DNA of 23,317 bases from Bdellovibrionota bacterium (GTDB taxonomy: Bacteria > Bdellovibrionota > UBA1018 > UBA923): the NCBI GenBank assembly GCA_040754655.1, contig JBFMCE010000064.1, positions 1 through 23,317 of the forward strand, given 5' to 3'. The translations under genes and the position numbers were made by a program. Every line of letters starts with the position of its first letter. Position 1 is the first letter of the stretch. Below, in pieces: positions 20,360-23,317 of the stretch. A model generated the notes under the pieces. That model was not told the DNA's origin, ran no database searches, and saw nothing but the letters and a program-made list of their open reading frames with translations.

Positions 20360-23317
20360 TTGACGGAAACGATCGGGAACTGGGCGACAAGCGCACTTTT
20401 GGTGTGTGCGGTGTTTGGTTCTCTAAACGCCTATGCCGAAAACGACAGGCTTTGCGCGACTAAACCGAAGAACCAACTTCTCGCTCACGCCAGAATCCCG
20501 GATGAGAAACAACAAGAGTGGTTGAAGCAATACAGGGAAACGAAGAATCCAAAGTTTCTTCATCGTATTTTGGAAGCGAATATCCAGCTCATACAAATAC
20601 GAGCAAAACAAACTCGCAGGTGGGCCCGAGAACTGGATTTAGATGATCTTGTTGGCCAAGGCTCATTGCATGTGCTCGAGGTTCTTTCGATGCGAAAAGA
20701 CTCTATTGAACAGATCTCATACTTCTTATCGGATTCACTAAAACACCATTTCTTTGATTATGCCTCAGAGCAGCTTTCTAAAAGTTCCGGTGCGGGACGA
20801 CAACGCCTTTCAAAGGTCTCTCAACTCAGAAAAACCATCGCCGAATTCGAACTCCAAGGAAAAAAACCTACGGTGAACCAACTGGCAGCAAGGTTGGATC
20901 TCCGACCGAATGAAGTGCTCGACCTGATCGATCTCGCAAGGTCCCCCGTCGAGCTTGATGCTCCTATTTCTACACTAGATAAACGCACCAGGCGAGATGC
21001 CCATCACGACATCGTTTCTGCGAACCCACCTGAACCTGACTCCGAACCTATTCACGCAGAAAAGGTTGCCTGGGGCAGCGCTGTGCAAGACATCTTAGAT
21101 AGAAATGAACTCAATGGGAGGCCTCTCACTGAACTGCAACGAGCGATACTCACCGAAAGAATTTTTGTTGACGATGACCATTCTGCCCTACGACTCAGTG
21201 AAATTGCCGCCAAACAAGGTGTACCAAAAGATCGGGCGACTAAGACAGCCACTCGCCTACGAGCTCAAATAGTGCGGCACTTGCGCAACTCTGGACTTAA
21301 GCTCCCGAATGTCGCAAGCGCAGCACCAGTGAAAGTTCCAGGCGTACTTGGGTGGATAGAGAAAGCGCTTGAAGACGGAACTATTCTCAATCCGCCGCTT
21401 ACCGAGCGGGAAAGGATTCTCGTGACACGCCACATATTGGCGGATGAGCCTATGCTTTTGAAAGATCTCGCCACAGAACTCGGTCTGCACCCTGCGATAC
21501 TTGTCGACAACAAGAGCGTCTTACTTTTAAAATTCAAGAACCTTTTGGAGCAGAACGGGATTGTGGCGCCCAGAGACTTTGATATTGAATCCGCGGTGCA
21601 TTTTGAAGCGCGTTACCGAGACCCCCCTCTCAAAGAAATCGTGAATAGGATTCTATCAACAAATACAATTGACGACAGGGTCCTGTCTTCAACAGAAGGA
21701 CGCATCGTTCACAAACACATTCTTACGCCCGCACCGGTGCCATTGAGTCAAATTGCCACGGAACTAGGGAAAGCAGACGTTGACCTTGAGCGTACCAAAG
21801 CATTGCTCACCCTTGAGATCCAAAATGCGATCCGCAGAAGAGGCTTTTCATATTCAGATGGAAAAGCGGTAAGACCCAAACGCATTGCAATCGATGAAAC
21901 TCAAAAGAAAAGCTCGGGTGACTTGATCAGAGCCGCAATCGAACAAGAGCGACTTGGACAAGTCTCTCTGTCTAAAGTCGAAGTCGAACTACTCAAGCAG
22001 CGGATTTTTACAGATTCTCCAACAAAATTTAGCGATCTTGAGAAAAAACTAGGCCAAGATCACTCAACTTTATCTTTCGTGGCAAGAAAGCTGCTTCTCA
22101 AGCTAGAGGGCCACCTTCTCGAGAACAGAGTTCATGAGCTTTCGAGCTTAGACATCAAGACCCTTGCCGCGTTCGAAGCAAGCAATCATCAAAGGCATGA
22201 TTTCACGAGCATTCTTGGCAAAATGCTCGAATCAAAAAAAATCGGAGCACGTTCTTTAAGCCCTCCGGAACTCTCAATCCTTCGAGACCGCATCGTCACC
22301 CGAAAACCTGTTGATGACGAGGTCTTGGCAAAGAGCTTAGGCTTTACGCCAAAACACATACGCAAAGTTGAAACGAAACTACGAGACGAAATTCAATCTT
22401 TTCTCAACCCCAGAAAACCTACAGAGCTCTTGCGAAAACTTATTCTAAACCCCAAACAAATTGAACTTGAGCTCAATGCTACAGAAATGGCTGTTTTTAT
22501 GAATTTGGTCGATATCGATCCTCGCTCCCCAAAAGAACTTGCCGAAAGGTTGGGTTACCTCGAATCCTCAGTGTATCATGCTAAAAAAAAGCTTTTATCA
22601 AAACTCAGGAGCTACCTTGAGAGTCACGGGGCCGTCCTTGACCCATCTGCTGATCTTGAAGAAGTCATACATTATCACGTGATCTTCAACTCACCCGACC
22701 ATGAAGCTACAATCAATACGGCCATCAAAAATCGTGTTCTTAATGGAAAACCCCTCGACGAGGTTGATTTTACGATCTTAAAAACAAAAATTTTTACTCC
22801 AGTTCCTGTTGATTACAAGGAACTAGTTCGCGAGACGGGACTTTCTAACACCGTACTTTCCGATCGGGAAGCCTTACTGCGGGCACGTGTTACAAATCAC
22901 TTTTATCGAGAGAGTGTGTCTTCGGCCAAAAAAACGCGTGACCCCTTAGGCCCCTCAATCCGGTCAAGAATATCTCGAGCACTCGAGACAGGAACTCTCG
23001 GAGACGAACCTCTAACTGCGGTCGAAAAAGCAATACTTGAAGATAGGCTATTCACGGATAAGCCTAAACCGCTCAGTGAGTTGCTCGTTAAAGCCGGCCA
23101 AAAAAGAAAAGAAGCTTTTGCCAAAGAGGAGCCCTTTTTACTTGAGAAGGTCGAAACCTGGCTATTTGAGCAAGGAATCCCGCCCGAAAAACTTTATAAC
23201 ACCGTATCATTCCTCGAATTTGAGTACCTCAATCAATATGACAAAGACATCGCAACTTTCCTTACTCGAGCAGTAGCGACACAAGAGCTTGACGGGCACC
23301 CTCTAAATGAAAGATTA
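20360..23317 (+). CDS. Giant sigma70-like protein with tandem region-4 HTH repeats (3' partial, at least 986 aa); absent from the ORF track
   Basis: Manual translation of + frame 2 has no stop from 20231 to the window end. Probable TTG start at 20360. Region 2.1/2.2-like [14 protein letters not shown]...[10 protein letters not shown]; region 3-like [15 protein letters not shown]...SPVELDAPI; then repeated L(T/S/N/D)xxE/Q/D...I/L...P...L...G units. Confidence 0.85.
21083..23317 (+). repeat. Protein-level tandem array of at least 9 sigma region-4-like units (72-97 aa period)
   Basis: Anchor Leu codons at 21125, 21398, 21683, 21968, 22256, 22472, 22754, 23012, 23303 (LTELQ, LTERE, LSSTE, LSKVE, LSPPE, LNATE, LDEVD, LTAVE, LNERL). 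No obvious DNA-level identity. Confidence 0.8.

Follow-up and report, generated by a model that had tools for sequence, protein, structure and literature searches.

A sigma-70-derived protein with an array of sigma4-like repeats behind a signal-peptide-like stretch on an unverified non-ATG start

Sigma factors are the classic example of proteins that act inside the cell that produces them, and pro-sigmaE is an example of a sigma factor made with an N-terminal pro-sequence. Bacillus pro-sigmaK likewise carries an N-terminal extension, which engages the membrane and is removed by proteolysis, as excerpts of the published account describe (PMC6242693). For the Sec signal peptide a tripartite structure has been defined, and an n-region of zero or negative charge significantly reduces Sec transport, according to the excerpted text of PMC5875014. 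Here we describe a gene on contig JBFMCE010000064.1 (assembly GCA_040754655.1, Bdellovibrionota bacterium), of which we analysed positions 1 to 23,317; this whole stretch of 23,317 nucleotides is called the window below. The gene encodes a sigma-like protein, and its frame opens with a stretch that resembles a Sec signal peptide. A sequence-only reading had proposed that the protein is exported. We find a sigma-70-derived core followed by a long array of sigma4-like modules, and we tentatively favour, with slightly under an even chance of being right, a start codon downstream of the hydrophobic core, a cytoplasmic protein and a signal-like stretch that is only an in-frame leader. The two parts of the protein, numbered in residues from the TTG codon at 20360, are:

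20477..21295, + strand: sigma-70-family core with a region 1.2-like part, sigma2, sigma3 and sigma4 (residues ~40-312)
21368..23317, + strand: array of sigma4-like modules of ~60 amino acids (aa), spaced ~92 residues apart, running off the window end

The frame is open from 20231, directly after the TAA at 20228, to the window end at 23317; the gene is therefore cut at its 3' end, and 986 residues are read from TTG 20360 up to that point. That the protein is sigma-like, as the earlier reading had it, is borne out on three sides. Residues 155-223 match Pfam Sigma70_r3 (PF04539) at E 3.6e-8, with 33.9 bits against a cut-off of 25.3. A HMMER search of 1.84 billion representatives at E <= 1e-3 returned 59 proteins, namely the protein itself, 57 members of the sigma family and one further relative, which we call P0005. 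The 57 sigma-family matches are 210-602 aa long, have their best-scoring stretches within query residues 31-322 and share 16-25% identity with the query. Finally, an AlphaFold model of residues 1-340, built from an alignment of the 57 sigma homologues, has a mean predicted local distance difference test score (pLDDT) of 79, with residues ~41-310 mostly above 90, and its best Foldseek matches among solved structures are chains of sigmaS, sigmaA and sigma32 (129 matches at E <= 1e-3, the top one being 5ipl_F at 1.7e-7). Pfam Sigma70_r2 and Sigma70_r4 gave no match in the protein, and the NCBIfam sigma models match it below their cut-offs. As modelled, the protein has the sigma-70-family fold, with the domains in the order sigma2-sigma3-sigma4.

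The conservation within this core is uneven. Sigma2, spanning regions 1.2 to 2.4, is covered by the HMMER alignments and modelled at pLDDT ~95, and the helix-turn-helix of sigma4 (residues 246-312) aligns to region 4 of 10 homologues at pLDDT 80-97. Measured against the majority consensus of the sigma homologues, the counts of positions kept are 9/25 for regions 2.1/2.2, 2/17 for regions 2.3/2.4, 13/18 for region 3 and 7/22 for region 4. The region 2.3/2.4 consensus (FDP...TYA..WIR) is thus nearly lost, at residues 112-145 (20693-20794), and for this reason the protein may not be a working initiation factor. In sigma factors, regions 2.1/2.2 bind core RNA polymerase; judged from the conserved positions, the protein may be able to bind the core polymerase without the ability to open promoters. 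Compared with sigma-70 group 3 or RpoH-like factors, it shares the sigma2-sigma3-sigma4 order, the Sigma70_r3 match and the top Foldseek hits, but it differs in its 16-25% identity, in the 2 of 17 positions of region 2.3/2.4 and in more than 670 extra residues.

These extra residues beyond the core are made of sigma4-like repeats. An iterated hidden Markov model places modules at residues 337, 432, 528, 623, 716, 791 and 875, and by eye a further one seems to begin at about residue 968, shortly before the window ends, which gives at least 8 modules after the core. Individually, the repeats gave no sigma4 match in Pfam at E <= 1. The link to sigma4 comes from a profile-profile comparison: aligned with hhalign to the sigma alignment, in which the query's own sigma4 is one of 11 rows, the repeats align to its region 4 columns (probability 97.1%, E 7.6e-11). 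Judging by the fold, the protein probably binds DNA by way of these modules, and possibly RNA polymerase.

The architecture of a sigma core joined to many sigma4 modules has one relative in the databases searched. This is P0005, a 640-aa protein from a public metagenome contig and the only relative found among the 1.84 billion representatives; both it and the query are singletons in a collection of 5.8 billion clusters. P0005 shares the sigma4-like repeats (BLASTP E 5e-18, 25% identity over 273 residues), has a weak match to a phage-sigma profile and begins with MIAFAWLHASSGLAAQRDKNC, which is mildly hydrophobic and then has a Cys (C21), as in the query. It differs in its best hydrophobic window, 1.18 against 2.23 in the query, and in ~145 residues that lie ahead of the sigma-like part. 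When the two N-termini are aligned (AQRDKNCIPGP in P0005), the score is not significant, since 262 of 2000 shuffles do as well or better. Among the 58 proteins made up of the 57 sigma matches and P0005, only 2 reach 1.6 in a hydrophobic window at the N-terminus, and 55 of the 57 distant sigma homologues lack such a window.

We detected no orthologue in the 5.8 billion clusters, the 1.84 billion representatives or the genomes of GTDB. Word-index searches returned the protein itself as the sole match among 5,990 candidates of near length, nothing related among 8,000 longer proteins that were scored and, with P0005 as the query, only P0005 among 7,998. In a protein search of GTDB species genome contigs, 0 of 67 pattern matches were confirmed. 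With tblastn, neither the query nor P0005 found a match at E <= 1e-3 in 80 loci around tgt, the gene next door, and neither the phage nor the plasmid records gave one. Following up viral sigma-like clusters indicated by the ESM Atlas gave only a match to a PHROGs phage-sigma profile, phrog_351, at E 4.8e-10. In the literature searched, phrases for a secreted or exported sigma factor, or for a sigma-like effector, were not found, and among the matches listed for a Bdellovibrio sigma factor with a signal peptide, no title or abstract named such a protein.

Ahead of the sigma core, the same frame contains the elements that had suggested export:

20360..20437, + strand: signal-peptide-like segment of 26 codons, passing our home-made test with h = 2.23; possible sites LNA/YAE and AYA/END
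20393..20425, + strand: hydrophobic core of 11 residues (12-22), read from the sequence
20429..20437, + strand: A-Y-A, candidate signal peptidase I site (A24-Y25-A26 before E27), with no proline at -3 to +1

The home-made test asks for an uncharged 12-residue window with a mean Kyte-Doolittle value of at least 2.0 that starts in the first 18 residues, followed within 8 residues by small residues at -3/-1 and no proline; it overlooks the outer-membrane protein at 2409-2978, whose N-terminus is visibly signal-like, and also flags the N-terminal membrane segments of SecD and SecF. With its best window of 2.23, the 20360 form lies within the 1.88-3.83 of the other passing N-termini in the window. 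The anatomy of its h- and c-regions, 11 hydrophobic residues, a G-S break, an aromatic residue at -2 and an acidic one at +1, is that of Gram-negative Sec/signal peptidase I peptides, with which it also shares the A-x-A and the total length of 26 residues. A run of eleven residues fits a signal-peptide h-region and would make a short membrane span. It departs from these peptides in the net charge of -1 of its n-region, in the TTG start with a weak Shine-Dalgarno (SD) site, in being a putative leader, and in a cargo that comes from a cytoplasmic family binding DNA and RNA polymerase. At the nucleotide level the tract that encodes the core is G/T-rich (TTTTGGTGTGTGCGGTGTTTGGTT) and, by inspection, reads as mostly hydrophobic residues in any frame. 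AlphaFold gives pLDDT below 50 for residues 1-13 and 15-39 and draws a detached helix at residues 6-27. Past the candidate site there is an R at +4, and the first 20 residues carry a net charge of +2. An ESM Atlas search with residues 1-45 gave a best score of 0.80, which is chance level.

Other export signals were rejected on their motifs. A lipobox has the form [LVI][ASTVI][GAS]C, and in this protein D-R-L stands before C32 and L-L-V, inside the core, before C16; a Tat signal needs the twin-arginine motif, and no RR stands ahead of the core when the frame is read from 20360. C16 and C32, the latter six residues past the putative cleavage site, are the only two cysteines in the 986 residues.

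The putative cleavage region has a close counterpart at the other end of the window:

13..78, + strand: signal peptide of the orphan open reading frame (ORF) 13-1074, MKVPGLFLSAMALFSISLNALA followed by E, used as comparison sequence, with K2 in its n-region

SLNAYAE (20420-20440) and SLNALAE (61-81), the predicted cleavage site of this secreted orphan, are identical in 6 of 7 residues, and SLNALAE is the only match of at least 5 of 7 to SLNAYAE in the six-frame translation of the window. We rejected a DNA duplication as the origin of this likeness, since the two motifs use different codons at 6 of 7 positions and, locally, the DNA of the two N-terminal coding regions matches over 6 bases at best. 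The likeness can also be read without export. In two MAFFT alignments L22..Y25 falls on the L..Y motif at the start of sigma region 1.2, and SLNAY would then belong to the sigma homology, at the cost of an 11-residue gap and in a part of the AlphaFold model that is of low confidence.

What the segment lacks is a basic n-region. MTETIGNW contains no lysine or arginine and one glutamate and has a net charge of -1, whereas 8 of the 16 other window proteins tested pass the home-made test and all 8 carry +1 or +2. In a larger sample of 121 signal-like N-termini drawn from 813 long ORFs, those of the 80 fetched loci and the window, 105 are at +1 or higher, 10 at 0 and 6 at -1 or lower; most of these 6 look by eye like membrane proteins. 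The sequence-only reading had thus been accurate in its description, as the hydrophobic core and A-Y-A are present from TTG 20360, SLNAYAE does resemble SLNALAE and the basic n-region is indeed missing. Its interpretation as a Sec signal peptide stands in part: the h- and c-regions are canonical and rare by chance, but the n-region is not basic and TTG 20360 is only a candidate start. That the leader is a Sec signal is not established; it is a hypothesis, and of the three parts by which such peptides are defined one is absent.

The in-frame start candidates are TTG at 20270, 20360, 20399, 20522 and 20570, GTG at 20402 and 20411, and ATG first at 20690; ATG is possible as the start of every other gene in the window. 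The codons and elements that matter most here are:

20360..20362, + strand: TTG, the start proposed by the sequence-only reading, in frame, with AGGA at 20344-20347, 12 nt upstream
20411..20413, + strand: GTG, start of the database gene call P0003 (969 aa)
20270..20272, + strand: TTG, the most upstream start, overlapping tgt by 45 nt
20690..20692, + strand: first in-frame ATG, in sigma region 2 (residue 111, aligning to the end of region 2.2)
19181..20314, - strand: tgt, queuine tRNA-ribosyltransferase, the divergent neighbour (Pfam TGT, E 4.6e-157)
20391..20409, + strand: hairpin GCGCAC-TTTTGGT-GTGTGC, 6 bp with a G/T-rich tail, flagged as terminator-like, within the core-coding tract

Here, too, the features listed in the earlier reading were found: the weak AGGA, the alternative starts GTG 20402, GTG 20411 and TTG 20522, to which TTG 20399 and TTG 20270 have to be added, and the position of the first ATG inside region 2, which the alignment confirms. 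GTG 20411 is residue 18 of the 20360 form and lies within the hydrophobic core; the ESM Atlas record starts there as well. Forms that begin at 20270, 20399 or 20411 fail the home-made test, and the N-terminus from 20411 has no signal-like segment. The tgt start codon is the ATG at 20314, which leaves 45 nt between it and TTG 20360.

We compared the ribosome-binding sites through duplex energies with a generic anti-SD sequence, which may differ from the host's own 16S tail. On this scale pairing is weak at GTG 20411, at TTG 20360 (-4.0 kcal/mol) and at TTG 20399 and GTG 20402 (-4.2 kcal/mol each), ATG 20690 has -7.1 kcal/mol through a GAGG site (20674-20692), and TTG 20270 has the strongest SD-like site among the candidates, at -10.9 kcal/mol with a spacing of 8 (20253-20272). 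The 13 other gene starts of the window range from -1.8 to -12.7 kcal/mol, several of them at -7 to -12.7. The Pro-Pro codons at the 5' end of tgt, read as their reverse complement, give the run of G before TTG 20270. A promoter scan of 20000-20800 found no sigma-70-type promoter; relaxed, it gave one weak 8/12 match on the + strand, with a -10 hexamer ending at 20252, and none for tgt.

Codon usage helps to narrow the choice. The in-frame score is -0.09 over 20231-20332, no better than in the off-frames, becomes positive from about 20384 on and reaches 0.18 per codon over 20411-20521, where the gene's own average is 0.09-0.15. TTG 20522 and ATG 20690 were rejected as unlikely main starts because this stretch upstream scores 0.18 and because both the homology to sigma factors and the confidently modelled structure set in at about residues 40-45; residues 45-110, upstream of ATG 20690, are most likely coding, as they are modelled at pLDDT ~95. 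Used as an internal start, ATG 20690 would yield a form without regions 1.2 to 2.2. The hairpin at 20391-20409 buries the GTG 20402 and GTG 20411 starts.

On the reading that we favour, the gene would encode a cytoplasmic, sigma-70-derived DNA-binding protein with a sigma2-sigma3-sigma4 core and, behind it, the long array of sigma4-like helix-turn-helix modules. Translation would begin beyond the hydrophobic core, from GTG 20411 or another non-ATG codon close to it, and 20360-20437 would be an in-frame 5' leader in which a G/T-rich tract happens to read as a hydrophobic run and A-Y-A. We lean this way because the database gene call, which is independent, starts at GTG 20411; because the n-region from TTG 20360 is without lysine or arginine and net negative; because the SD site of TTG 20360 is only an AGGA, 12 nt away and at -4.0 kcal/mol; because the sigma fold belongs to a cytoplasmic family, with 55 of 57 homologues lacking a hydrophobic N-terminus; and because a start at 20411 leaves ~23 residues before the sigma homology, within the 3-35 residues seen in homologues of ~300 aa. 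Several results weigh against it. Only 0.73% of random open 54-codon stretches (n = 18,137) pass the home-made test from any of their starts, 0.03% with a strict A-x-A, and among short, mostly spurious ORFs of the 80 loci (n = 2,363) the values are 3.1% and 0.30%, to be seen beside the 14.4% of long ORFs (n = 750) that pass; it is unlikely, but not impossibly so, that the signal-like pattern is accidental. The 6/7 match to a real cleavage site is left unexplained by a cytoplasmic protein. GTG 20411 has no good SD site, since its duplex of -5.8 kcal/mol abuts the codon. The energy needed to open the mRNA around the start is 7.0 kcal/mol for TTG 20360, compared with a mean of 9.9 kcal/mol for the 13 other starts, and 15.6, 16.9 and 18.8 kcal/mol for TTG 20399, GTG 20402 and GTG 20411, on a background of 9.7 +/- 3.1 kcal/mol. 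The codon score is slightly positive over 20360-20410 (0.07, which is uninformative) and clearly positive over 20411-20521. Opening energy discriminates weakly because the 13 known starts themselves spread over 4.4-16.9 kcal/mol, so that the predicted accessibility is weak evidence for TTG 20360 over the codons at 20399-20411.

If translation nevertheless starts at TTG 20360, the hydrophobic N-terminus could be a membrane tether or a pro-sequence that would keep the protein at the inner side of the membrane, its sigma part in the cytoplasm, until its release. This would account for a non-random hydrophobic N-terminus on a protein of a cytoplasmic family, it fits the accessible TTG, and N-terminal membrane segments often have a neutral or negative N-flank (of the 16 ORFs at 0 or below, most look by eye like membrane proteins). 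An analogous case is pro-sigmaK: its pro-domain enters SpoIVFB, a protease embedded in the membrane, as excerpts of PMC6242693 describe. Like our protein, pro-sigmaK is a sigma-family protein with a short N-terminal extension before region 1.2. It differs in that our extension has a signal peptidase I-type site, that none of the 18 ORFs scanned in the window is an intramembrane protease gene or otherwise SpoIVFB- or SpoIIGA-like, and that the source is not a sporeformer by synteny; we draw the likeness without claiming a relation in sequence. A tether is further disfavoured by a core of only 11 residues in a 23-residue uncharged run, short for a membrane span, by the G-S break and A-Y-A, which resemble a signal peptidase I site and not an anchor, and by the lack of a confident AlphaFold placement of residues 1-39, and it has the same problem of a TTG with a weak SD site as export. 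We regard it as unlikely, though deserving of attention. Cleavage of a Sec signal after A-Y-A and export of the sigma-like protein, possibly onto the RNA polymerase or DNA of another cell, appears improbable to us. It would draw on the same accessible TTG, on h- and c-regions that are canonical and rare by chance, on the 6/7 match to a secreted window protein with its different codons, on regions 2.3/2.4 that keep 2 of 17 positions against 9 of 25 in regions 2.1/2.2, so that the protein may not be a working initiation factor, and on a window rich in secreted orphans whose synteny is best with Bdellovibrio and Bdellovibrionales, at 28-58% identity. To be set against this are the n-region at net -1 without a basic residue, a property that reduces Sec transport according to the excerpted text of PMC5875014, the R at +4 and the net +2 of the first 20 mature residues, the TTG with its weak, distant SD site and the gene call at 20411, an N-terminal alignment with the sole relative P0005 that 262 of 2000 shuffles match or beat, the phrases for secreted or exported sigma factors that the literature searched did not contain, and the fact that a Sec signal would deliver the protein to the periplasm only. 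A more specific proposal is a Sec-exported sigma mimic that keeps part of the region 2.1/2.2 consensus, has nearly lost that of regions 2.3/2.4 and bears an array of at least 8 further sigma4 modules; such a protein could engage RNA polymerase or promoter DNA in a foreign cell. We hold this to be distinctly improbable; its source would possibly be a deep-branching relative of the predatory Bdellovibrionales. A start at TTG 20270, finally, would give a 56-residue leader with a long basic n-region before unchanged h- and c-regions. From 20231 on the frame is open, the 30-residue extension is rich in K and R and the SD-like site is the strongest of all candidates, but this start overlaps tgt head to head by 45 nt, its G-run is explained by the Pro-Pro codons of tgt on the other strand, the codon score of -0.09 over 20231-20332 does not surpass that of the off-frames, and the h-region lies too far from the N-terminus to be signal-like in the home-made test; we consider it very improbable. 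Whichever of the four readings holds, the cargo is derived from a sigma factor and contains many helix-turn-helix modules.

The surroundings of the gene bear on its source. On the - strand, recJ, secF, secD, yajC and tgt form a block (14180-20314), whose best synteny is with four Bdellovibrio or Bdellovibrionales loci (L009, L074, L017 and L038), at 28-58% identity only; across the 80 tgt loci fetched, no GTDB species genome exceeds 59% identity in tgt. From these sequences the source appears to be a deep, unsampled lineage, with a hint of a predatory affiliation. In this block YajC (18731-19147, - strand) has an Ala/Pro/Gly-rich extension of ~46 residues before its Pfam YajC domain, which matches from residue 47. 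The rest of the window is rich in orphan secreted proteins. ORFs 13-1074, 3016-4041, 10520-10909 and 10909-12864 have signal-like N-termini with basic n-regions and no Pfam family, and ORFs 13-1074, 3016-4041 and 10909-12876 also have no NCBIfam match above cut-off; a subtilase (7199-8947) and the outer-membrane beta-barrel protein (2409-2978) are encoded as well. Rfam and tRNA scans of the window found nothing.

In summary, we describe a sigma core that is fused to an array of region 4-like modules, and the protein is unusual even without export. It may illustrate the re-use of sigma domains as modular units that bind DNA or polymerase. Where a signal-like N-terminus hinges on an unproven non-ATG start and has no basic n-region, it should not be counted as evidence of secretion. 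If it were true, however, that a sigma-derived protein carries a working export signal, it would represent secreted transcription effectors of a new class, and its export would be of special interest in a predatory or host-associated lineage.

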